A stretch of DNA of 64,000 nt from Myxococcaceae bacterium (GTDB taxonomy: Bacteria; Myxococcota; Myxococcia; Myxococcales; Myxococcaceae). Location of the stretch: positions 64,001-128,000 of the forward strand of contig JAXLYB010000002.1 of assembly GCA_046351675.1 (NCBI GenBank). The letters run 5' to 3'. Below are positions 3,109-56,035 of this stretch, piece by piece; positions within the stretch are counted from its first letter, which is position 1, and each line of letters opens with the position of its first letter. The position numbers and the translations under genes are program-made. A model generated the notes under the pieces. The model ran no database searches. It was not told the origin of the DNA and saw only the letters and a program-made list of their open reading frames with translations.

Positions 3109-3279
3109 CTCCCTCTCCTCCCGAGGAGGAGAGGGTTGGGGTGAGGAGTGAAGCATCGAGGCGCCAACGGGCTCATGCCTCGAGCGGTGGTGCTTTCCTC
3201 TCTGCTTCAGTTCAGCCGCACTCTGCGCTCCGGGGGTTCACTCCTCACCCCGACCCTCTCCTCTGAAGAGGAGAGGGAG
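3109..3279. repeat. inverted pair of the palindromic repeat family (units 3109..3148 and 3239..3279) flanking a ~90 nt spacer that itself contains a hairpin
   Basis: CTCCCTCTCCTCCCGAGGAGGAGAGGGTTGGGGTGAGGAG ... CACTCCTCACCCCGACCCTCTCCTCTGAAGAGGAGAGGGAG. It lies between the convergent gene ends at 3097 and 3291. Confidence 0.85.
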
Positions 3280-18830: not shown

Positions 18831-20615
18831 ATGCTCTCCGCCCTGCGCCTCGCCATTCCGCTGTCGCTGTTCGCCGTGGTGCTCCTCGGGTGCCCCGAGA
18901 AGAAGTGTGACGCGTCGACCTGCGCGACGGGCTGTTGCAGCTCGACCAACCAGTGCGTGACGGCCACCAACGGCAGCCAGTGCGGCACGCTCGGCGGCGC
19001 GTGCGTCACCTGCGCGCCGACGCAGATTTGCCAGGTCGGGGTGTGCTCGGTCGCGTCGACGAGCGGCGGCGGCACGGGTGGCGGCACGGGCGGCGGCACC
19101 GGTGGCGGCACGGGCGGCGGCCTCGGAGGCGGCACCGGCGGCAGCCTCGGCGGTGGCACCGGCGGCGGGAGCAACATCCTCGGCACGTACCGCGACGTCT
19201 TCACGGCCTACTGCGACTACGCGGTGCGGTGCGGCTACCTGCCCTCGGCCCAGCGCGCCGACTGCATCGACCTCTACTCGATGTACTTCGTGGGCTCGGC
19301 GGCGAGCGCGACGCAGATCGACCACGTGGCGTTCACCGCCGCCGGCGCGGCCGCGATGGAATCGTGCCGCACGTCGCTCTCGACGCTGTCGTGCAGCCCC
19401 AACGCGGTGGGCAGCGCGTGCTCGGGCATCTCGTCGCCTGAAATCGTCGGCACCGTGCCGACCGGCGGCTCGTGCATCCAGTCGTCGTTCGAGTGCGCCA
19501 ACGCGTCCGACAGCTGCGTGGGCAACACGTGCCCGCGCCAGTGCCAGGCGGTCGCCGTCGGCTCGCTCGGCGCGCCCTGCCCGCGCACGGGTTCGTGCAA
19601 CGACGGGCTGTACTGCGACTCGATCAACGTCTGCCAGGCGCTGAAGGCCGGCGGCTCGACGTGCGGTGGCAGCTACGAGTGCCAGAGCGGTCAGTGCTCG
19701 ACGGGCACCTGCACCACGCCCGTTCCGCTCGGCGGGGTCTGCAACTTCAACGCGCCGTGCGTGTCGACCGCCTGGTGCGACGGCACCAACCACTGCGCCG
19801 CGCGCAAGTCGGGCGGCTCGCAGTGCAGCAACTACCCGCGCGAGTGCGCCGACCCCAACCAGTGCATCAACAACGTGTGCGTGGTGCCGTCGGGCGTCGG
19901 CGTGGTCTGCCGCAACTTCAACGAGTGCCGCAGCGACCTCGACTGTGACTCGGTGCTGCGCACCTGCCAGGCGTACGCCTCGGTCGACGCGGGCCAGCCG
20001 TGCACCAACTCCGCGGTGCAATGCAAAGGCTCGTTCTCGTGCATCGGCGCGGTGGTGAACCCCGACGGCGGCGTCGGCACGCAGGGCACCTGTGGCACCC
20101 GCGTCATCGGGTCGCCGTGCACGTCGAACTACCAGTGCCCCATCGCCTCGTTCTGCGATGGCACCAAGCACTGCGCGGCCTCCACCGTCGGCAGCTCGTG
20201 CGATGGCTCGCAGAACTGCCGCGCGACCGAGTACTGCGCGTCGACCGGCACCTGCGCGGCGCGTTTCGGCACCGGCGCGCAGTGCGACGTCACCGTGTCC
20301 GACTCGTGCGCGGTGGCGACCGAGCGCTGCATCGCGACGCCGACCGACGCGATTCGCAAGTGCCGCGCGCCGGCGGGCGCGGGCGGCGCGTGCCTCTCGC
20401 AAGACGGCTGCCAGGGTTTCCTGCTCGCGTGCCTGAACCAGACCTGCACCACGGTCGGCCACGTCGGCCAGCCCTGCTTCCAGAGCCGCTGCATCAACAG
20501 CGCGTGCGTCGACGCGGGCTGCGTCGCACCCCAGGCCAACGGCGCGAGCTGCAACGGCTTCGGCGACTGCCAGAGCCAGACCTGCTTCGACAGCGTCTGC
20601 TCGACCTGCCCGTGA
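18831..20615 (+). CDS. cysteine-rich repeat lipoprotein (Myxococcus cysteine-rich repeat, TIGR02232-like)
   Basis: Signal peptide with lipobox (MLSALRLAIPLSLFAVVLLGCPEKK). A Gly-rich linker follows (GGGTGGGTGGGTGGG...), and then more than 20 repeats of the pattern C..G.C....C.....C. Long antisense ORFs on the minus strand (18224..19204 encoding PPPVPPPV, and 18549..20462) are artefacts of this gene. Confidence 0.8.
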   Translation: MLSALRLAIPLSLFAVVLLGCPEKKCDASTCATGCCSSTNQCVTATNGSQCGTLGGACVTCAPTQICQVGVCSVASTSGGGTGGGTGGGTGGGTGGGLGGGTGGSLGGGTGGGSNILGTYRDVFTAYCDYAVRCGYLPSAQRADCIDLYSMYFVGSAASATQIDHVAFTAAGAAAMESCRTSLSTLSCSPNAVGSACSGISSPEIVGTVPTGGSCIQSSFECANASDSCVGNTCPRQCQAVAVGSLGAPCPRTGSCNDGLYCDSINVCQALKAGGSTCGGSYECQSGQCSTGTCTTPVPLGGVCNFNAPCVSTAWCDGTNHCAARKSGGSQCSNYPRECADPNQCINNVCVVPSGVGVVCRNFNECRSDLDCDSVLRTCQAYASVDAGQPCTNSAVQCKGSFSCIGAVVNPDGGVGTQGTCGTRVIGSPCTSNYQCPIASFCDGTKHCAASTVGSSCDGSQNCRATEYCASTGTCAARFGTGAQCDVTVSDSCAVATERCIATPTDAIRKCRAPAGAGGACLSQDGCQGFLLACLNQTCTTVGHVGQPCFQSRCINSACVDAGCVAPQANGASCNGFGDCQSQTCFDSVCSTCP

Positions 20616-30334: not shown

Positions 30335-30354
30335 CGGGCGCTCACCGTACCGTA

Positions 30355-30459
30355 CTCCCTCTCCTCCCGAGGAGGAGAGGGTCGGGGTGAGGAGAAAAGC
30401 GTCGAAGCGCCACCCCTCTCGTTCCGGCGCAACCCTCTCCTCCCGAGGAGGAGAGGGAG
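30355..30459. repeat. full palindromic repeat unit plus a second partial unit filling the divergent promoter region between 30334 (-) and 30472 (+)
   Basis: CTCCCTCTCCTCCCGAGGAGGAGAGGGTCGGGGTGAGGAG ... AGCGTCGAAGCGCC ... CCCTCTCCTCCCGAGGAGGAGAGGGAG. Confidence 0.85.
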
Positions 30460-36407: not shown

Positions 36408-36997
36408 GCGCGCTCGACGACAGGGCGTGGCTCGTCATCGCCGACCGCTTCACCGAGGCCGGCAACCCGCTGGGCGAGTACATCGTGCTCGAGCTGCGAC
36501 ATGGCGAGGACATGCCCGTGCGCGAGACACGGCGTCAGCGCCAACTGGTGCGCGAGTGGAACAGCAGCTTCGCGCCATGGTCGAAGTTCGTCGCCTGGTC
36601 GACCGCGCGACTGACGCTGCGATTCAAGGACAGCGCCACGGTGCTCGCACACGCGCGTGAGCTGAAGGACCTCGCCGTGCCGCTCGAGCTGGAGATCGGC
36701 GACGGCAGCCGCTCGCTGCAACGCTGCGTCTTCGACGAGGGCTTCACCCGCCTCGCGTGGACCGAGGAGACGAGCAGCGTCGAAAACCAGAACCACTCGC
36801 CCGGCATGGACGAGACCTGGCACCACTGGACCGCCGTGAAGGTGTGGCGCGTCGCCGACGGAGTGCTGCTCTACGCCGGCGGAGTCGAAGGCCGCGCGCG
36901 CGTCGAGCTGCGGCCGGACGGGGTGTGGGCGCTCGAGAACGGACGCGCCCAGCACCTTCATCCCCCTCTCCCCCCGTGGGGGAGAGGGTTGGGGTGA
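36404..36997 (+). CDS. TIGR02996 repeat-companion-domain protein (LV.AD...E.G.P.GE.I.L motif)
   Basis: The GTG start overlaps the upstream stop (GTGA). The N-terminus LDDRAWLVIADRFTEAGNPLGEYIVLELRHGE matches the TIGR02996 signature (pRLVYADWLEE.GDP.RAEFIRLQ). The last ~10 codons and the TGA come from a palindromic repeat. Confidence 0.5.
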   Translation: MSALDDRAWLVIADRFTEAGNPLGEYIVLELRHGEDMPVRETRRQRQLVREWNSSFAPWSKFVAWSTARLTLRFKDSATVLAHARELKDLAVPLELEIGDGSRSLQRCVFDEGFTRLAWTEETSSVENQNHSPGMDETWHHWTAVKVWRVADGVLLYAGGVEGRARVELRPDGVWALENGRAQHLHPPLPPWGRGLG

Positions 36998-37069
36998 GGG
37001 GAAATCCGACGATGGCGCTGCGACGGTTTACTCCTCACCCCGACCCTCTCCTCTGAGGAGGAGAGGGAG
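36962..37069. repeat. inverted pair of palindromic repeat units (CCCC/GGGG stem variant at 36962..37005; canonical unit at 37029..37069)
   Basis: CCCCTCTCCCCCCGTGGGGGAGAGGGTTGGGGTGAGGGG ... CTCCTCACCCCGACCCTCTCCTCTGAGGAGGAGAGGGAG. It lies between convergent gene ends. Confidence 0.85.
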
Positions 37070-37075
37070 ACGACC

Positions 37076-38434
37076 TCAGTTCTCGGGATACGCCGTCCAG
37101 CCGGTGGTCCAGTCGTCGGTGCCGACCGCGCCCACGAACGTCGCGCTCGAATCGAAGAACCCGTCGCTCGGCGGCGTCGCGCCCCCCATCAGCGCCGGCG
37201 AATCCGCGAGCGGCTTGAAGACCGGCGCCGTGACGTTGGTCGCCGCGACGAGCTTCGGGTCGATGTCGAGGCGGTTGTTGAGCGACGGCGCCTGCATCGC
37301 GCTCAGCTCATCGAACATGTTGTCGCTCACGCCACCGTCCGCCAGCGCGGGCGCGTGGTAGTCGACGACGCCGTTCACCGGGTTCTGGAAGAAGATGGAG
37401 TTCTTCACCGCGAGCGCCCCCATCGACCACTGCTCCTTCGACGGGTTGCCGTTCACGATGAGCCCCGTGTCGGTGAAGTTGGTGACGACGACGTTGTGCA
37501 GCAGCCCCGCGGTGCCCGCGCGCAAGATGATGCCGCGCGAAGGACCTTCCGACGCCGCCATGTCCGGGTTCCGGCCGACGAGCGTGACGTTGTAGAGCAC
37601 CGGCGCGCTGCGGGGCATGAGGTCGGCGTTGGTCGCGTCGTTGTCGGCCTCGATGCCGTGGTTGCCGCGCCCGGGGACCTGCGCCGCGATGACGAACTGC
37701 GCCTTGCCGCGCCAGCCCTTGTCCCAGTCGAGGCCGTCGTCGTCGCTGCCGGTGATGACGAGGTGCTTCATGTTCACCGTGCCACCGAACAGCTCGATGC
37801 CGTCGTCGACGCCGCGGTGCACCTGCACGAAGTCGATGGTGGTGCCGCTGCCGCACCCGTTGAGCGTGATGCCGTTGAGCTCGTTGTTCGCCGAGAGGGG
37901 ACGGCCGGCGAACTCCACGCGCACGTACTTGAGCGTGCCGCAGTCGTAGGCGTCGTCGGTGCCGCCGTACTTGTTCTTCGGATCATCGACGAGGCCTTCG
38001 GCGTTGCCCTCGCCGCCCATGGTGTTGATCACCGCGCGCCCGAGGAACACCAGGCCGCCCCAGTCACCCTGCACGCTGCCGCGCTGGCCGGCCGGCAGGC
38101 TCGAGGTGAAGACGATGGGCTCGCTCGCCGTACCCGCCGCCACCAGCTTCGCGCCGCGCGAGACGATGAGCGCCGACGCCGCGTCACCCGCGATGGTGGT
38201 GCCCGGCTGAATCGTCAGCGTCGCGCCCGTCACGTAGGTGAGCTGCTTCAAGATGTAGACGTGGTCCTTCGTCCACGTGGTGTCGGTGGTGATGTCAGCC
38301 GTCACGTCGATGGTCGCCGACGCGCCACCACCTCCGCCCGCACCGCCACCCGTACCGCCATCGGGGGTCACGGTCGCAGGGCACGCCAACAACAACGTCG
38401 AGACACACAGCGCCAGCAGCAGCTTCGCGTTCAT
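37076..38434 (-). CDS. secreted lipoprotein, probable right-handed beta-helix fold, co-transcribed downstream of the TonB-dependent receptor
   Basis: ATG (cat 38432..38434) gives MNAKLLLALCVSTLLLACP with a lipobox. This start overlaps the receptor stop as ATGA. The protein is rich in G/D/N/T with repeated turn-like segments. ORF 37076..38710 is open upstream, but that part is antisense to the receptor's 3' end. Confidence 0.6.
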   Translation of the reverse strand: MNAKLLLALCVSTLLLACPATVTPDGGTGGGAGGGGGASATIDVTADITTDTTWTKDHVYILKQLTYVTGATLTIQPGTTIAGDAASALIVSRGAKLVAAGTASEPIVFTSSLPAGQRGSVQGDWGGLVFLGRAVINTMGGEGNAEGLVDDPKNKYGGTDDAYDCGTLKYVRVEFAGRPLSANNELNGITLNGCGSGTTIDFVQVHRGVDDGIELFGGTVNMKHLVITGSDDDGLDWDKGWRGKAQFVIAAQVPGRGNHGIEADNDATNADLMPRSAPVLYNVTLVGRNPDMAASEGPSRGIILRAGTAGLLHNVVVTNFTDTGLIVNGNPSKEQWSMGALAVKNSIFFQNPVNGVVDYHAPALADGGVSDNMFDELSAMQAPSLNNRLDIDPKLVAATNVTAPVFKPLADSPALMGGATPPSDGFFDSSATFVGAVGTDDWTTGWTAYPEN

Positions 38435-41400
38435 TTCTTCTCCTCGGTGAGGTTCCAGGAAAGGGTCGCCATGAACTGCACGCCCGGTGGGTTGACGAGC
38501 ACGTCCACGCCGTTCTGTTGAAACCTGACGGCCTGGTTGAGCACGTTGGCCGCGGACACCTTGAGCGACAGGCCCGCGGGCAGAGGCTGGGTCACGGTGA
38601 CGTCCAGCCGGTGGAAGGGCTGCTCGACGATGTCGGGCAACCCGTTGAAGCCCACGTCGGAAATGCGCGGGCCGTACACGTTGTAGAAGACGCCGAGCTC
38701 GGTGCCCCACGTCGGGTGCGCCACGGTGACGAACGCGTTGGCGATGAAGGGCGACTGACCCTGCAGCGGCCGCGCGGAGTTCGTCTGCGGCGAGTTCGGG
38801 TCGAGCTGAATGCGCGACCAGATGAGCGAGAGGTTGCCGCCCACCGTCACCGGCTTCAGCGCGGGCGAGAAACGCGAGAGGTTGCTGCGCGCCTCGAGCT
38901 CACCGCCGATGAGCGTCGCCGCCTTCGAGTTGCGGAACGTCACGTCGCCCGCCAGCGAGCTGGTGCCGTAGATGACGCGCTCGATGGGCTGCTCGAACTG
39001 CTTGGCGAACGCGCTCACCGCGATGACGTCGCTCTCGCCCAGGAACCACTCGCCGCGCAGGTCCATGTTGTGGATGCGCGTGTTGACGAGGTCGGGGTTG
39101 CCGCTGACGTTGCGGCGGCGAACCATGTCGAAGAAGAGGAACGGCGCCAGCTCGCGGAAGCTCGGCCGCGCGAGCGTGTACGCGTACGAGGCCCGCAGGT
39201 TGAGCGCGCTGGTCGGCGACCACACCACGTTGGCGGTCGGCACCACGTCGACGCGCTGGCGCGCCACGCTCGGAATGCCCGCCGACACGCCCGTCGCGAA
39301 CGGAGAGCCACCCACCAGCGTCTGCGTCGAGCCCTCGACCCGCACTCCCGCGAGCGCGCGCAGCGTGGGCAGCGGCTTCCACTCGGTGCTGACGTACCCG
39401 CCGTAGACCGCGAGCGACGCGGAGTAGCGGTCGTACGCCTGCGTCGTCTCCTCGAGCGTGAGCACCTGGTCGCCGGTCACCGGAGGACCGAAGCGCTCGG
39501 GCACCAGCAGCTCCTCGAGCGGGTACTTCTCGAGCTCGGCGCTCAGCCGGCCGAGGTAGCGGAAGCGGCGCCCGTCGAAGCTTCGCCCCGAGACCTGCCC
39601 CAGGCCGCCCGCCTTGAACTTGAAGCTGCGCCACGGGACGGTGAGGTTGAGCGTGCCGCCGCCCTGGTCTTCGTGGAGCGTGAGGAAGAAGCGCTCCACC
39701 GAGTTGGGCTGAATGCGCACCTGCGTGCTGCCATCGGCGTTCACCATGTACCGCGCGTCGCGAATGTCGGGCTCGTCGCGGTTGACGCGCGAGTAGTTGA
39801 GCTGCCACTCGAGCTCCGCGTCGCCGAGCGTGGGGAAGCGGTGCGTGCCCTTGAGCTGGTTGAAGAAGAGCTGGCGCGCGGTGAACTGCAGGCGGCTGCC
39901 GGTGACGTTCTGCGTTTCCTGCTGGTCGAAGCCGGCGCTGGTGGTGGCGCTGGTGTCGGCGTTGAAGAGATAGAGGCCGAGTGCGCTGATCTCGTGGTGG
40001 CGATCGAGCTGCAGCCCGGCGTTGAGCAACGCGCTGGTGGCACCACTCACGGTGCCAATCTGCGTCGTGAAGTCGCTCTCGCCCGCGTCGAGGCTGATGG
40101 TGCGCACCTGCAGCACCTGCCGCCGCTCGCGCCGTGAAATCTGGCCCGACGCGAGGAAGCCGAGCTTCGCCTCGCGCCCCAGCGAGAACGTGTCGCCCGC
40201 GGTGAAGCCGAACGTGCCCGACGGGAGGCTGTTCACGACGCCCGGGGTCCACCGCTGGCTGAAGGCCGACGCCGCCGCCTTTTGGACGTCAGCGCCGACG
40301 CCCGAGCCACCGATGCGCGCGGGCACCAGCGGTTGATCAGCCGGAATCGCCGAGGGCAGCGCGCGCGAGGCGTTCGCGAAGCCGATCGACTCCAGCGCCG
40401 TCGAGGCCTCGTTGGGCCGCGCCTGGAACGTCGTCATCGTGTCGCCCGACACCTGCGCGCGCAGCTTCACCTCGAGCTTGGTGGGGAAGGTGTTGGTGTC
40501 GATGGTCACCGAGCCGCCCGCGAAGGTGGCGGGCAGCTCCGGCGTGTAGGTCTTGATGACGTTCAAGTTCGACAGCAGCCCGACAGGAAAGAGGTCGAGC
40601 GGCACCGAGGGCTCGTCCGGTTCCGGGCTCGGCATCAGCGTGCTGTTGAGCAGCGTCTGCGTGTAACGGCCGCCCAGCCCGCGAATGAAGACGTACTTGC
40701 CGTCGACCAGCGTCGCGCCGACCACGCGCTTCACCGCGTCGCCGGCGTTCGAGTCCGGCGTCTTGGCGATGGCCTGCGCGCCGAGCGAGTCCTGCGCGAC
40801 GACGGCCTTCTTGCGTTCCTGCACCAGCGCCGCCTCGTTGCGCTTGTCGACCTTCGCCTCGACGACGACTTCCTGCACCGCCTTCGCGTCGCGCGAGAGC
40901 GCGACGTCGAGCGGCACCGCCTCGCCCGGCTTCACCACCACGCCGGTCAGCTTGCGGCCCTCGTACAGCTCGTAGAACACGCGCAGGTCGTACGTGCCTG
41001 GCGGGAGCTTCAGCTTGAAGTTGCCGTCGACGTCGGTGAGCGCCGACTTCTTGATGGGGCCGGCGAGGACCTTGATGGTCGCCTCGATGAGCCCCTCGCC
41101 GGTGCGAGCGTCGATGACGCGGCCGCGAACGCCGACGAACGCCTTGCCCGAAGGCGAAGGCGGCGGAACGACGGAACTGAGCTCCCTCTCCCCCGCGGGG
41201 GAGAGGGTCGGGGTGAGGGGAAGAAGTCCGGCGTCGACCGCCGAACTGAGCTCCGTGAGGGGAAGCACCAACCCGCCATCGGCCCCCGCGTCGACCGCCG
41301 AACTGATCTCCCTCTCCCCCGCGGGGGAGAGGGTCGGGGGAAAAACCGACGCGCCAGCGACTCCCGAGTCGACCACCGATGGCAGCACGCCCGCGTCGTC

Positions 41401-41460
41401 GAGCGACTGCGCCCGCACCGCCACCGACGTCACCAGCACCGCGAGGAAGACCGTTCGCAC
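38431..41460 (-). CDS. TonB-dependent outer-membrane receptor with N-terminal carboxypeptidase-regulatory-like domain (Oar-like)
   Basis: 1009 aa. Signal peptide MRTVFLAVLVTSVAVRAQS, then the CarbopepD_reg-like domain (GRVIDARTGEGLIEATIKV). The C-terminus ends ...LSWNLTEEKK with a terminal aromatic-region barrel. Two palindromic repeat copies lie in frame between the signal peptide and the first domain. Confidence 0.8.
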   Translation of the reverse strand: MRTVFLAVLVTSVAVRAQSLDDAGVLPSVVDSGVAGASVFPPTLSPAGEREISSAVDAGADGGLVLPLTELSSAVDAGLLPLTPTLSPAGERELSSVVPPPSPSGKAFVGVRGRVIDARTGEGLIEATIKVLAGPIKKSALTDVDGNFKLKLPPGTYDLRVFYELYEGRKLTGVVVKPGEAVPLDVALSRDAKAVQEVVVEAKVDKRNEAALVQERKKAVVAQDSLGAQAIAKTPDSNAGDAVKRVVGATLVDGKYVFIRGLGGRYTQTLLNSTLMPSPEPDEPSVPLDLFPVGLLSNLNVIKTYTPELPATFAGGSVTIDTNTFPTKLEVKLRAQVSGDTMTTFQARPNEASTALESIGFANASRALPSAIPADQPLVPARIGGSGVGADVQKAAASAFSQRWTPGVVNSLPSGTFGFTAGDTFSLGREAKLGFLASGQISRRERRQVLQVRTISLDAGESDFTTQIGTVSGATSALLNAGLQLDRHHEISALGLYLFNADTSATTSAGFDQQETQNVTGSRLQFTARQLFFNQLKGTHRFPTLGDAELEWQLNYSRVNRDEPDIRDARYMVNADGSTQVRIQPNSVERFFLTLHEDQGGGTLNLTVPWRSFKFKAGGLGQVSGRSFDGRRFRYLGRLSAELEKYPLEELLVPERFGPPVTGDQVLTLEETTQAYDRYSASLAVYGGYVSTEWKPLPTLRALAGVRVEGSTQTLVGGSPFATGVSAGIPSVARQRVDVVPTANVVWSPTSALNLRASYAYTLARPSFRELAPFLFFDMVRRRNVSGNPDLVNTRIHNMDLRGEWFLGESDVIAVSAFAKQFEQPIERVIYGTSSLAGDVTFRNSKAATLIGGELEARSNLSRFSPALKPVTVGGNLSLIWSRIQLDPNSPQTNSARPLQGQSPFIANAFVTVAHPTWGTELGVFYNVYGPRISDVGFNGLPDIVEQPFHRLDVTVTQPLPAGLSLKVSAANVLNQAVRFQQNGVDVLVNPPGVQFMATLSWNLTEEKK
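41181..41220. repeat. palindromic repeat unit (CCCC/GGGG stem variant) in frame inside the receptor ORF
   Basis: GCTCCCTCTCCCCCGCGGGGGAGAGGGTCGGGGTGAGGGG. In the receptor frame it translates to PLTPTLSPAGERELSS. Confidence 0.85.
41307..41340. repeat. second in-frame palindromic repeat unit inside the receptor ORF, flanked by a duplicated AACTGA(G/T)CTCC junction
   Basis: TCTCCCTCTCCCCCGCGGGGGAGAGGGTCGGGGG. In the receptor frame it translates to PTLSPAGEREISS. Confidence 0.85.
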
Positions 41461-41528
41461 GCCGCGCCTTGTGCGCTCTTCGCGTGGCGCCTTTCGGGCG
41501 CGAGCGTCAATTCACTGCGCCAGTCGCG

Positions 41529-41969
41529 TCACGGCTCCGCAACGACCGGCTCAGCGAGCACCGCGAGCGTCTCCACGCCGCCGCCGCGCACCTGGTCCAT
41601 CACCTCGAGCGCGCGCCCGTAATCCATCGCGGAATCGGCATCGAAGAACACGACCTTGTCCGGCCGCGCGTTGAGCATGCGCACCAGCCGCGCGTTCAAG
41701 TCCGCGCGCGCGATGGCCTCGCCGTTCACCTTCGTCGTGCCGTCGCCGTCCACCGTGAGCACGAGCGGCGGCAGCGCATCCGGCGGAGGCGGCGGCTGGT
41801 TCTCCTCGGGCTTCGGCGGCACGTTGAGCCACACCTGCTTGCTGAGCATCGGCGTGACGACCATGAAGATGATCAACAGCACCAGCACCACGTCGACCAG
41901 CGGCGTGATGTTCATCTGCGGCCGAATGCGCTTCTTGCCGCCCTTGCCGTCGTCGAGTTCGACACCCAT
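41529..41969 (-). CDS. exbD: ExbD/TolR biopolymer transport protein
   Basis: Start at MGVELDDGKGGKKRIRPQMNITPLVDVVLVLLIIFMVV (cat 41967..41969), followed by the periplasmic domain. The longer ORF to 42125 is rejected. Confidence 0.75.
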   Translation of the reverse strand: MGVELDDGKGGKKRIRPQMNITPLVDVVLVLLIIFMVVTPMLSKQVWLNVPPKPEENQPPPPPDALPPLVLTVDGDGTTKVNGEAIARADLNARLVRMLNARPDKVVFFDADSAMDYGRALEVMDQVRGGGVETLAVLAEPVVAEP

Positions 41970-41973
41970 TTCT

Positions 41974-42408
41974 TCACCCGTGGTTCTGGTTCGCGCGGTC
42001 GATGACCTGCAGCGCCGCGCCGGGAAACCCGATCTCCTGGCACCGCTTGAACATCGCGCGCACCTTCCCGTACGCGACCGCGGCATCGGCCTTGAGCACC
42101 ACGCGCGCGCTCGGCTTGTCGGCATGCAGCTTCGTCAACCGCGCCACCAACTCATCCTCCGCGACCTGCTCCTTCTCGAAGAACAGCCGCCCGTCCTTCG
42201 TGAGCGTGACGGTGGTCGGCTCGAGCGCGCCGTTGCCCTGGTCGGGGTTGAGAATCGACGGCAGCGTCACCGCGGCGCCCGCTTCCATCTGCGGCGCGAC
42301 GACCATGAAGATGATCAACAGCACCAGCACCACGTCGACGAGCGGCGTGATGTTGATGTCTGGTTTGGCGCCCGCGCGCCGCGTGGTCGAAGGAACGTCA
42401 GCCGCCAT
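41974..42408 (-). CDS. exbD: ExbD/TolR biopolymer transport protein (second copy)
   Basis: DINITPLVDVVLVLLIIFMVVAP is the ExbD TM signature. 144 aa. Confidence 0.8.
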   Translation of the reverse strand: MAADVPSTTRRAGAKPDINITPLVDVVLVLLIIFMVVAPQMEAGAAVTLPSILNPDQGNGALEPTTVTLTKDGRLFFEKEQVAEDELVARLTKLHADKPSARVVLKADAAVAYGKVRAMFKRCQEIGFPGAALQVIDRANQNHG

Positions 42409-42411
42409 GAC

Positions 42412-43179
42412 TCAAGTCTCCAGCGCGTGCTTCGCCTTCCACAGCTCGGTGGGCTCCTCGAGCGCGCCCTTGAGCGCCTCTTCACCGCGCTGAGGCTCCA
42501 CCTTCACGGCCGGTCGAAGCCCCTCCGTGTGCCGCGCCTCCAGGAAGTCGATGAACTCACCGCGCACCTGCTCGAGCGCCAGCAGCAGCGCGTCGGCCTG
42601 CGCCGAGAGCCAGTTGAACGCCAACACCGCGGGAATCGCGACAACCAGGCCGAGCGCCGTCTCGTACAGCGCCTCCGAGATGCCCATCGACACCGCGCCG
42701 AGGCCGCCCGAGCCCTCCTTCGCGATGCCCTGGAACGCGGTGATGATGCCGAACACCGTGCCGAGCAGCCCGACGAACGGCGCGATGGAGCCGACCGACG
42801 CGATGATGCTCATGCCGCGCCGCACGTCGGCCGCGACCGCCTCGGTCTTGCGCAGCAATTCCCGGCGCGCCGCCTCGACTGGTGACAGCGACGTGGGCTT
42901 GCTCGACGCTGCGACGTACGTCTTCGCGCCCGCGCCGAGCAGCTGCGCGAGGTGACCGCGGCTCTCATCGGCCTTCTTCGCCAGGCCCGCGGTGTCGCCG
43001 CTCTCGAGCAACGCGCGCGCAGTCGCCGCGAACTTCCGCGACGCCGAACGCGAGCGCCAGAACGCGAAGAGCCGCTCGAAGAAGATGGCCAGCGACGCGA
43101 GCGCCATCGCGAGCAGCGTCGAGGCGACCGCGATGGCCGGCGCGCCCATGTGGTGGAAGATGTTGGTCAGCGTGTCCAT
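42412..43179 (-). CDS. exbB: ExbB/TolQ/MotA-family proton channel
   Basis: Three TM segments. The conserved region is GMSIIASVGSIAPFVGLLGTVFGIITAF...GISEALYETALGLVVAIPAV. Confidence 0.8.
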   Translation of the reverse strand: MDTLTNIFHHMGAPAIAVASTLLAMALASLAIFFERLFAFWRSRSASRKFAATARALLESGDTAGLAKKADESRGHLAQLLGAGAKTYVAASSKPTSLSPVEAARRELLRKTEAVAADVRRGMSIIASVGSIAPFVGLLGTVFGIITAFQGIAKEGSGGLGAVSMGISEALYETALGLVVAIPAVLAFNWLSAQADALLLALEQVRGEFIDFLEARHTEGLRPAVKVEPQRGEEALKGALEEPTELWKAKHALET

Positions 43180-43183
43180 GGCT

Positions 43184-44044
43184 TCACTCCCGCAGTGAGA
43201 AGGTGATGTTGACGATCTTGAAGACGGTGATGGGCGTGCCCTCGAGCGTCGCCGGCTCGTAGGTCCACGTGCGCACCACGGCGAGCGCGGCCGAGACGAA
43301 CGGCTCCTCGCCCTTGAGCACCTGGATGCGGCCGACCTTGCCGTCGCTCTCGACGACGATTTTCAGCACCACCTTCGCCTCCTGGCCGGTGGTGCGCGCG
43401 CTCTCGGGGTACTCGGGCTGCGCGTTCTCTTCGTTGGGCACCGGCGGGTCGGCGTCTTCCGGCAGGTTCACCGGGCCCTTCGTCTGCGCGCTCGCGATGA
43501 CCGGCGCGGCCGACTCGTCTTCGTCGCGCGGCGCGGGCGCAACGGGAGCCGCGTCGAGCTTGCCGTCACCGGTGCCACCGACCGCGACCGCGATGGCCTG
43601 CACCGCGGTGTCCGACTCCTTCGGCTTCTCCTTCGGCACTTCCTTCGGCGCGACCATCGCGGCGGGCGCAGGCGGCGGCGCTTCGACGGCGACGGGCGGC
43701 GGAGGCGGCGGCTTCACCTTCGGCTTGGGCGGCGGCGGCGGCTCGACCTTCACCGGCTCCGGCGGCGGAGGCGGCGGACGGAAGCTCACGTCGACCTGCT
43801 TTTCCTTCACCGCGCTCGCGGGCCGGTTCGCGATGGCCGCGACCACCACGCCGAAACCGCCGAGCGTCAGCGCCGCCGCGACGAACGCCACCACCAGCCG
43901 CTTGCGCAGCGCGCCGACGTCAGCCTGGGCGACCTCGAAACCCTGGAACACGCGGGCGGCTTGTAGAGACGACGCACGGCAGGCCGGTGAAGCGCTCGTT
44001 CCGAGTCGGTCACAAGCTCGTCGCGTCCCCGCAACAGCGCGCAC
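43184..44044 (-). CDS. tonB: TonB energy transducer (Pro-rich spacer, C-terminal TonB_C domain)
   Basis: The TM anchor is LVVAFVAAALTLGGFGVVVAAI. The Pro-rich tract is PPPPPPEPVKVEPPPPPKPKVKPPPPPP. The C-terminus is YPESARTTGQEAKVVLKIVVESDGKVGRIQVLKGEEPFVSAALAVVRTWTYEP. The exact start is uncertain. Confidence 0.75.
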   Translation of the reverse strand: MRAVAGTRRACDRLGTSASPACRASSLQAARVFQGFEVAQADVGALRKRLVVAFVAAALTLGGFGVVVAAIANRPASAVKEKQVDVSFRPPPPPPEPVKVEPPPPPKPKVKPPPPPPVAVEAPPPAPAAMVAPKEVPKEKPKESDTAVQAIAVAVGGTGDGKLDAAPVAPAPRDEDESAAPVIASAQTKGPVNLPEDADPPVPNEENAQPEYPESARTTGQEAKVVLKIVVESDGKVGRIQVLKGEEPFVSAALAVVRTWTYEPATLEGTPITVFKIVNITFSLRE

Positions 44045-52405: not shown

Positions 52406-52447
52406 CTCCCTCTCCCTGCGGAGCGGGGAGAGGGTCGGGGTGAGGGG
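52406..52447. repeat. palindromic repeat unit (CCC/GGG stem variant, 8-nt loop) in the 52-nt gap after the HK stop
   Basis: CTCCCTCTCCCTGCGGAGCGGGGAGAGGGTCGGGGTGAGGGG. It contains a spurious in-frame ATG (52440) for the downstream gene. Confidence 0.85.
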
Positions 52448-52454
52448 CCGAACC

Positions 52455-53276
52455 ATGTACAGCCGCGTGAAGTTTCTGATCCTCGCCCTGATCGTCGCAG
52501 CGCCAGCCCTCGCGCAGCGTGGCGAGCCCCTCACCTTCGGCACCTCGTACCGCCTCGTCTCGAAGAACCTCCGCGGCGAAGCAAAGCACCTCAACGTGCT
52601 CCTGCCGCCCGACTACGAAAAATCAGGCGCGAAGTACCCGGTGCTCTACCTGCTCGACGGCGGCGCTGATCAAGACTTCTTCCACATCGCCGGCCTGGTG
52701 CAGATTCTCATCGGCAATGGCTCGATGGCCCCGCTCATTCTCGTGGGCGTCGAGAGCGGCGACCGCAAGCGCGACCTCACCTTCCCCACGAAGGTCCCCG
52801 ACGAGCAGAAGCTCGCGAAGGTGGTGGGGCAATCAGCCGACTACCGCTCGTTCTTCGTGACCGAGGTCTTCCCCTTCGTCGAGCGCACCTTCCGCACCAC
52901 GGGCGAGCGCGGGCTGATGGGAGAGTCGCTGGCCGGGCTCTTCGTGCTCGAGACGTTCTTCCTCGCGCCCAACCTCTTCGACGCCTGGCTCGCGGTGAGC
53001 CCGAGCCTCTGGTGGAACGAGAAGTCGCTGGTGAAGGACGCGGCCGTGGCGCTCAAGAAGTTCCCCACGCAGCCCGAGCGGCTGGTGGTGGCGGTGGAGG
53101 AAGAAGACTTCAACGAAGGCGTCAGCGCGCTGCAGAAGGTGCTCGAGGCGGGCGCGCCGAAGAGCGTCAACGCCACGGTGAAAATCTTCCCGGGCGAGAC
53201 GCACGGCACGGTGTTCCACCCCGCGGCGCTCGACGGGCTGCGGCGGTTGTTCCCCGGTCCACCCCCGGCGAAGTGA
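52455..53276 (+). CDS. secreted esterase of the 'putative esterase'/enterochelin-esterase-like alpha/beta-hydrolase family
   Basis: ATG 52455 gives MYSRVKFLILALIVAAPALA as a signal peptide. YPVLYLLDGG...LMGESLAGLF is the family signature with its serine elbow. Confidence 0.55.
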   Translation: MYSRVKFLILALIVAAPALAQRGEPLTFGTSYRLVSKNLRGEAKHLNVLLPPDYEKSGAKYPVLYLLDGGADQDFFHIAGLVQILIGNGSMAPLILVGVESGDRKRDLTFPTKVPDEQKLAKVVGQSADYRSFFVTEVFPFVERTFRTTGERGLMGESLAGLFVLETFFLAPNLFDAWLAVSPSLWWNEKSLVKDAAVALKKFPTQPERLVVAVEEEDFNEGVSALQKVLEAGAPKSVNATVKIFPGETHGTVFHPAALDGLRRLFPGPPPAK

Positions 53277-55996: not shown

Positions 55997-56035
55997 TCCC
56001 CCTCTCCCCCTGGGGAGAGGGTCGGGGTGAGGGGA
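55997..56035. repeat. palindromic repeat unit (CCCC/GGGG variant) between convergent gene ends
   Basis: TCCCCCTCTCCCCCTGGGGAGAGGGTCGGGGTGAGGGGAGT, starting 1 nt after the TAA at 55994..55996. Confidence 0.85.

Follow-up and report, generated by a model that had tools for sequence, protein, structure and literature searches.

The receptor gene and its N-terminal region

The stretch of DNA analysed here, referred to as the window, comprises 64,000 nucleotides of a Myxococcaceae genome (contig JAXLYB010000002.1) with a G+C content of ~70%. Its minus strand carries a gene for a TonB-dependent receptor of 1009 aa (38431..41460), and units of a short palindromic repeat that elsewhere in the window is found between genes are situated in the 5′ coding region of that gene. 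The assignment derives from the open reading frame (ORF), from Pfam and from NCBI protein P0001, which is encoded on a 1.27-Mb contig of a Myxococcaceae metagenome-assembled genome (MAG) and matches the receptor with 100% identity over 100% coverage. In addition to an N-terminal CarboxypepD_reg domain, Pfam identified a Plug domain (PF07715) at residues 220–304 and a barrel (PF00593) at residues 509–973. The Plug and 22-strand barrel domains, the latter also visible in the AlphaFold2 model, the signal peptide and the linkage to tonB and exbBD genes (NCBIfam) are those expected of a TonB-dependent receptor.

The ORF starts at a GTG codon, and the first 19 residues, MRTVFLAVLVTSVAVRAQS, form a signal peptide (41404..41460, minus strand), within which AlphaFold2 predicts a helix at residues 2–14. 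The sequence continues as LDDAGVLPSVVDSGVAGASVFPPTLSPAGEREISSAVDAGADGGLVLPLTELSSAVDAGLLPLTPTLSPAGERELSSVVPPPSPSGKAFVGVRGRVIDARTG. Residues 20–110 (41131..41403, minus strand) represent a linker of x(n)-DAG units and repeat-derived segments that is predicted to be disordered, as judged from the AlphaFold2 confidence score (pLDDT, predicted local distance difference test) and from orthologues. The first folded domain beyond the linker is CarboxypepD_reg, at residues 111–189 (40894..41130, minus strand; PF13620, E=6e-15). In the receptor frame, ...FPPTLSPAGEREISSAVDAG...LPLTPTLSPAGERELSS... is read ahead of GRVIDARTG.

The genes tonB-exbB-exbD-exbD, identified from their ORFs and NCBIfam matches, are situated upstream on the same strand (41529..44044), with the last exbD gene stopping 68 nt ahead of the receptor start. 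The same order of signal peptide, CarboxypepD_reg, Plug and barrel, and the same clustering with tonB-exbB-exbD, are found in Oar-like/SusC-like TonB-dependent receptors with a CarboxypepD_reg extension. The receptor is likened to these by its architecture, from which it differs in having a long low-complexity spacer ahead of the first domain.

Repeat units inside the receptor gene

A note made earlier from the sequence alone had placed two palindromic units in frame between the signal peptide and the CarboxypepD_reg domain. The ORF, the Pfam match, a scan of in-frame start codons and the coordinates all agree with that placement. A perfect 24-nt palindrome, CCCTCTCCCCCGCGGGGGAGAGGG, is present at 41184–41207 and again at 41310–41333, where 0 occurrences would be expected (100 shuffles). 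The 40-nt units that contain it, at 41174–41213 and 41300–41339, share 98% identity, with an offset of 126 nt (42 codons). The junctions AACTGAGCTCC and AACTGATCTCC and the duplicated ELSSAVDAG peptide that had been reported are likewise present in the linker, the copies of the peptide reading E[LI]SSAVDAG. The count of two units, on the other hand, was too low: both units exist as described, but a third, at 41243–41265, had been missed, so that three related units (a, b and c) are found along the receptor coding strand instead of two.

The blocks of the three units are written here for the + strand. Copy a (41182..41222) is a complete triplex motif, CCCTCTCCC-CCGCGG-GGGAGAGGG-TCG-GGGTGAGGG, that matches the published TMECO pattern exactly and aligns with intergenic copies; read from the mRNA strand, it encodes LPLTPTLSPAGERE-LSSVV. 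Unit b (41243..41265) is a remnant in which the left flank, GAACTGAGCTCC, is fused to the third block, GTGAGGGGAAG, the inner 27 nt, including the hairpin, being missing in frame. It encodes LPLT-ELSSAVDAG and contains a third AACTGAGCTCC, at 41244–41254. Copy c (41308..41338), defined by repeat comparison, retains an intact hairpin, but its third block is short by 6 nt, in frame, and it falls short of the full TMECO pattern; its translation is FPPTLSPAGERE-ISSAVDAG.

It was considered whether unit b could be an empty, pre-insertion site. This was ruled out: unit b keeps both the third block (GTGAGGGG) and the left flank (GAGCTCC), and it is read as a deletion derivative because both ends of the element are kept.

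The offsets and indels of the three-unit array are 69, 57, 27 and 6 nt, each of which is a multiple of three. By our own calculation, the chance that four independent steps would all be multiples of three is ~(1/3)^4, or ~1%; the array is therefore as would be left behind by selection for an open frame. These values also bear out the proposal, made in the earlier note, of a local duplication following an insertion. In the orientation found in the receptor, the motif contains no stop codon in any frame. Each palindrome has a predicted RNA hairpin energy of –23 kcal/mol (Watson–Crick folding), and the two identical palindromes would be able to pair with each other over a long range. Given the hairpins and this palindrome–palindrome pairing, a structural effect on translation or on the mRNA is physically plausible.

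Evidence for translation of the repeat-bearing segment

The GTG at 41460 is the sole in-frame start that is followed by a hydrophobic h-region, and no in-frame ATG, GTG or TTG occurs between 41268 and 40980, the latter position falling within CarboxypepD_reg. Because of this, copy a must, on the reading of the sequence, be translated if a complete CarboxypepD_reg domain is to be made. The start context RRV[NK] (with GTG) is common to many orthologue loci, and the cleavage region AQS|L..DAG is common to the receptor, P0005 and L003. As the start context and the signal peptide are thus homologous across orthologues, the start codon and signal peptide are judged to be real. The start scan and this homology uphold the claim that the only plausible signal peptide lies upstream of the repeats, with no alternative start or signal peptide downstream. 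As to an internal promoter downstream of the repeats, no consensus match to a sigma-70-like promoter was found in 40900–41700, which is weak evidence and applies to sigma-70-type sites alone.

The G+C contents at the first, second and third codon positions (GC1, GC2 and GC3) of the linker outside the repeats are 0.75, 0.55 and 0.77, versus 0.66, 0.48 and 0.93 for the whole gene. The linker thus carries a weak frame signal, in which the GC2 minimum alone is found in the right frame, and no weight was placed on GC3 periodicity. Such a weak signal is what would be expected of young or unconstrained sequence.

The low GC3 of the linker could also be taken to mean that the repeats are non-coding, with the true start located downstream and the repeats forming part of a 5′ leader or an intercistronic stabiliser, like those of the repetitive extragenic palindromic (REP) type, after exbD, or else that they are an assembly artefact. 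Other copies in the window do lie in leaders or after stop codons, two of them immediately ahead of start codons, and the exact receptor protein is known from one contig alone. That contig, however, is 1.27 Mb in length, the receptor frame stays open throughout with all indels being multiples of three, and many orthologues from independent assemblies present the same order of signal peptide, motif-containing linker and domain. When these observations are set beside the results of the start and promoter scans, a non-coding or artefactual origin appears improbable in the extreme.

Identity of the repeat and distribution of its other copies

A looser search of the window yielded 15 matches to GGAGAGGGTCGGGGTGAGGGG, and ~17 hairpin units were found in all. 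Alignment of 16 copies, in which copy a aligned with 14 intergenic copies, revealed a ~41-nt core, CTCCCTCTCC-loop-GGAGAGGG-(T/C)(C/T)G-GGGTGAGGRG, with unconserved flanks; the spacer of copy a is TCG. Four inverted pairs are present, at 3112–3148/3241–3271, 33818–33853/33881–33920, 36965–37001/37031–37066 and 57774–57809/57840–57870. Such inverted doublets are often situated directly 3′ of stop codons, in the manner of REPINs, and the doublet at 36960–37070 is predicted to form one long hairpin (–77.9 kcal/mol, z=–7.1).

The placement of the copies was judged from stop-to-stop ORFs with a high-GC3 coding signature and from N-terminal translations. By this measure all of the ~15 other copies in the window are found after stop codons or in 5′ leaders, and those of the receptor are the only copies within a coding sequence. 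The repeat had been described as routinely intergenic, and every other copy in the window is. In 1.47 Mb of DNA, comprising the window and related loci, a single palindrome was flanked on either side by a strong coding signature within the same open frame; it is probably a chance match.

No match to the window was obtained in Rfam at gathering thresholds, and the repeat is therefore not a curated RNA family. Literature searches on REPs in Myxococcus returned nothing relevant, and those on BoxC, TMECO or PIT returned only Holder et al. (2015; PMC4666352), which was reached by a full-text search for the third-block sequence. That paper describes TMECO (earlier BoxC/PIT) as a G/C-rich intrastrand triplex motif with the pattern CCCTCNCCC-N3-6-GGGNGAGGG-N3-GGGNGAGGG, present in 3610 copies in 262 proteobacterial genomes; myxobacteria are not mentioned. 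The 23 copies in Escherichia coli MG1655 are always intergenic, some form inverted tandems, and the motifs had no promoter or terminator activity. Small deletions and rearrangements were reported to occur locally in association with them, with replication slippage put forward as the cause (PMC4666352). A further mark of the family is a purine-motif intrastrand triplex formed by the single strand in vitro.

This strict pattern is matched exactly by copy a (41184–41219) and by the copy at 56000–56033. In most window copies the third block is GGGTGAGGAG, which is one base off the strict TMECO pattern, and those copies fail it. The three-block arrangement is nevertheless shared (compare the E. coli example CCCTCTCCCTGTGGGAGAGGGTCGGGGTGAGGGC with CCCTCTCCCCCGCGGGGGAGAGGGTCGGGGTGAGGG from the window), as are the dispersed distribution (~17 copies in 64 kb), the inverted pairs and the local deletions and rearrangements. 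Judged by its pattern, the receptor repeat belongs to the TMECO/BoxC family. The intergenic habit of that family, which is a habit and not a structural criterion, is followed by ~15 copies in the window but not by those at 41184 and 41310. In contrast to the situation in E. coli MG1655, then, two copies and a remnant appear here within a translated ORF, and the host is a myxobacterium.

Two of the leader copies, at 52409–52447 (with an ATG near 52455) and at 30358–30394 (ahead of a minus-strand lipoprotein gene with its start near 30340), end a few bases 5′ of start codons. Their G-rich blocks (GAGGGG and GGAGG) may supply the ribosome-binding site, since they are placed where a Shine–Dalgarno sequence would be expected. 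A hairpin-only copy (CCCTCTCCTCCCGAGGAGGAGAGGG) that has no third block was observed at 30434–30456, in a divergent intergenic region, at a distance of 76 nt from a complete copy.

Disorder of the linker and recurrence of the motif in orthologues

With an alignment of 34 sequences, AlphaFold2 assigned residues 9–105 a pLDDT of 21–34 and no secondary structure, and residues 110–188 a beta-sandwich with a pLDDT of ~88–91. Among 120 homologues the segment between signal peptide and domain is low-complexity, spans anything from ~20 to over 200 residues, and is hypervariable in sequence as well as in length: x(n)-DAG repeats are typical of close relatives, and long PAQ- or TAQQPG-type repeats of Myxococcus and Corallococcus. 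These results fit the suggestion in the earlier note that the repeats are tolerated as a linker, and the linker is best read as a segment predicted to be unconstrained and to tolerate almost any sequence.

At least three clades have the motif in this linker, where it occurs in either orientation and is read in frames 0, 1 and 2. In the window's own clade, P0003/L080 carries it as LPLSPTLSPSGGEGE, in the frame and position of copy a, P0005/L081 carries it in another frame as SSPQPSPPQEERG, and P0006 contains a decayed version, QRVAPPQAERG. No motif is present in P0002, P0004 or L001. In the second clade (P0010, P0011, P0013–P0016, P0021 and P0022; L005 and L006) the motif is read in the third frame, as SPLPDPLPxGERE. 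L008, which lies outside the tree and was assumed to belong to that clade from 67% identity, has two copies (GERVGVRG), one of them reversed. The Archangium loci L032, L036, L037, L039, L040, L051 and L053 carry HPHPDPLP(E/G)GEG in the same frame as the second clade. Partly deleted or decayed versions occur in P0006 and P0093, and L002, a relative counted as lacking the motif, has a possible decayed copy that is ~50% identical to copy a by hand count. Among the orthologues examined, the motif was absent from the receptor linkers of Myxococcus, Corallococcus, Pyxidicoccus and Cystobacter.

Two pairs of Archangium loci, L036 (Archangium gephyra SDU49) versus L051 (an Archangium MAG) and L032 versus L053, are near-identical in the upstream region, signal peptide and linker, but from the LIEAT motif to the C-terminus they are only ~62–64% identical (62% for L036/L051). 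Near-identical N-termini beside so divergent a remainder point to mosaic receptor genes that arose by recombination in Archangium. A separate observation concerns L033 (BNCN01000009.1), titled Comamonas sp. KCTC 72670, in which the receptor N-terminus is almost as in Myxococcus xanthus orthologues; this assembly is probably mislabelled or contaminated.

Origin and retention of the in-frame repeats

Direct observations show where the repeat lies, in which frame it is read and to which family it belongs, that its other copies are intergenic, that the linker is predicted to be disordered and varies in length, and that the motif recurs in orthologous linkers. From these, it seems probable that the motif was acquired in frame by a tolerant linker, underwent duplication and deletion of the slippage type, and is merely tolerated. 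A GC-rich hairpin/triplex repeat that is dispersed through the genome and normally intergenic would have come to lie in the 5′ portion of the receptor gene, among the codons for the disordered x(n)-DAG linker that joins the signal-peptide cleavage site to the periplasmic CarboxypepD_reg domain, and would simply have been translated there, as (L)PLTPTLSPAGERE. It would have been tolerated because, in this orientation, all frames of the motif are free of stop codons and because there is no fold in the linker that it could upset. Tandem duplication of the repeat-bearing DAG unit would then have produced three units, with subsequent trimming by the loss of the 27-nt hairpin segment in unit b and of 6 nt from the third block in copy c. 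Replication slippage at a hairpin-forming repeat may have caused both the duplication and the deletions, only frame-preserving products being kept. The mechanism of the insertion is one that we infer, and selective neutrality is assumed. We know of no transposase for the TMECO/BoxC family. Tolerance is favoured by the close relatives that do not have the motif (L001, L002 and L004), by its decayed and half-deleted versions and by its varying distance from the start codon (~codon 25 to ~codon 100), and the three-unit array in the window shows ongoing gain and loss.

Several observations weigh against this explanation. By a fairly strict definition, 14 motif hairpins were counted in 26.9 kb of linkers (0.52 per kb) versus 28 in 1.10 Mb elsewhere in the loci (0.025 per kb), a ~20-fold enrichment that reflects perhaps 3–5 independent events, is biased by L080 and L081, which were fetched because they bear the motif, and is measured against DNA most of which is ordinary coding sequence and could not carry the motif without lethal effect. 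The loci L040, L051, L053 and L005, of 17–23 kb, have no true copy other than that in the linker. Across six Archangium loci the 34-nt motif is 88–100% identical versus 69–87% for four-fold sites, and the disfavoured AT-ending codons CCT and GGA are kept in the motif in a gene with 93% GC3, which hints at constraint or gene conversion over drift. This comparison with four-fold sites is suggestive but ambiguous, and it is weakened by the mosaic, recombinant nature of the N-terminal segments and by the small number of sites (34). Moreover, the ~41-nt core is not a multiple of three, so that an extra adjustment would have been needed in the original event. The element that the earlier note described as mobile or structured belongs to a published triplex-motif family (PMC4666352) that is not known to be mobile, a point that also counts against acquisition by insertion.

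The same enrichment, sole copies and Archangium conservation can be accommodated if selection at the level of DNA or RNA maintains the hairpin/triplex motif in the 5′ coding region, the encoded peptide being incidental. Possible roles would be a translational pause 30–100 codons past the start, during emergence of the signal peptide, an element at the exbD–receptor boundary for processing or stabilising the mRNA, or an inherent slippage hotspot by which linker length is varied. The stability of the hairpins and their long-range pairing are in keeping with such roles, as is the pattern in the six Archangium loci, in which the stems are near invariant, the loop and flanking linker are variable and the AT-ending codons persist. 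The small number of independent events, however, together with the choice of L080 and L081, reduces the force of the enrichment. The motif is missing from close relatives and half-deleted or decayed in P0006 and P0093, its position is far from fixed, recombination at the Archangium N-termini confounds the conservation, and the related motifs in E. coli had neither promoter nor terminator activity. Selection of this kind is considered unlikely. The fuller proposal, that the motif is a conserved cis-element of the early coding region, kept across Archangium and re-acquired elsewhere, that tunes translation, export or the operon mRNA or destabilises linker length, is a speculative one that we regard as unlikely; if true, it would provide a first function for the long-enigmatic BoxC/TMECO repeats, acting from within an ORF. 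An origin in situ, such as template-switch (quasi-palindrome) mutation of a linker rich in Pro, Gly and Glu, would be compatible with the similar DAG-LL(A/P)xT units found at the same place in relatives without the triplex motif and with the absence of an evident transposase or target-site duplication. Copy a, on the other hand, possesses all three blocks of the family, with the spacing and the CTCC lead-in of the intergenic copies, and the reversed copy in L008 and the occurrence of three different frames would be hard to generate in place; we consider this origin very improbable. Acquisition of a family member in a tolerant linker thus remains the explanation preferred here.

Comparison with other palindromic repeats

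By analogy, the closest precedent for reading such a repeat in frame would be the Rickettsia palindromic elements (RPEs), which, with other intragenic elements of the miniature inverted-repeat transposable element (MITE) and enterobacterial repetitive intergenic consensus (ERIC) types, are known as in-frame fusions, the RPEs being ~100–150 bp in length (PMC10969869). In both cases one short palindromic family is present between genes as well as in frame, and the peptide is added outside the folded core, with the host protein preserved. RPEs are set apart from the receptor repeat by their size, by a Rickettsia-specific consensus and by their occurrence in many genes; the receptor repeat is ~41 nt, fits TMECO and, in the sampled sequence, is found in the disordered N-terminal linker of one gene, where it recurs across species. 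With REP/REPIN elements, which are mobilised by RAYT (Y1) transposases, the window repeat shares short GC-rich palindromes, a mostly extragenic location beside gene ends and inverted doublets. The GTAG or CGTC end tag of REPs is absent from the 16-copy alignment, in which the conserved ends are CTCCCTCTCC and GGGGTGAGGRG, and REPs have no counterpart of the third, G-rich block.

The in-frame location had been called unusual. This is so with respect to the intergenic habit of the family; it is less so in view of the orthologues in at least three clades that share the motif and of the in-frame palindromic repeats already known (PMC10969869). The feature is explained by known kinds of event, and what is new is the presence of this motif family inside a coding sequence, in Myxococcota, and its repeated capture and retention in the linker of one receptor. 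A BoxC/TMECO motif can, it would appear, be carried and translated within a gene when it lands in a disordered segment. The Archangium names with a conserved in-frame copy (A. gephyra, A. minus and A. lansingense), the relatives without the motif and the decayed copies form a natural series suited to the questions of whether such motifs are selected or tolerated and of how local duplication and deletion are driven. For annotation, peptides such as PTLSPAGERE or HPHPDPLPEGEG in a real protein would be repeat-derived and no sign of a wrong gene start.

Neighbouring genes and other observations

A lipoprotein gene (MNAKLLLALCVSTLLLAC...) is situated downstream of the receptor at 37076–38434 (minus strand), and its start overlaps the receptor stop codon. 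The counterpart of this neighbour in L080 has a Pfam Beta_helix_4 match, and the receptor and lipoprotein may represent a conserved pair. Upstream, the adjacent exbD paralogues share a 66-nt stretch (41850–41915 and 42292–42357) that is 95% identical in otherwise diverged genes, which suggests gene conversion between the tandem paralogues. Elsewhere in the window, a 12-nt tandem repeat (GGCGGCGGCACG-like, at least three copies) was observed at 19065–19112, in a GC-rich stretch.

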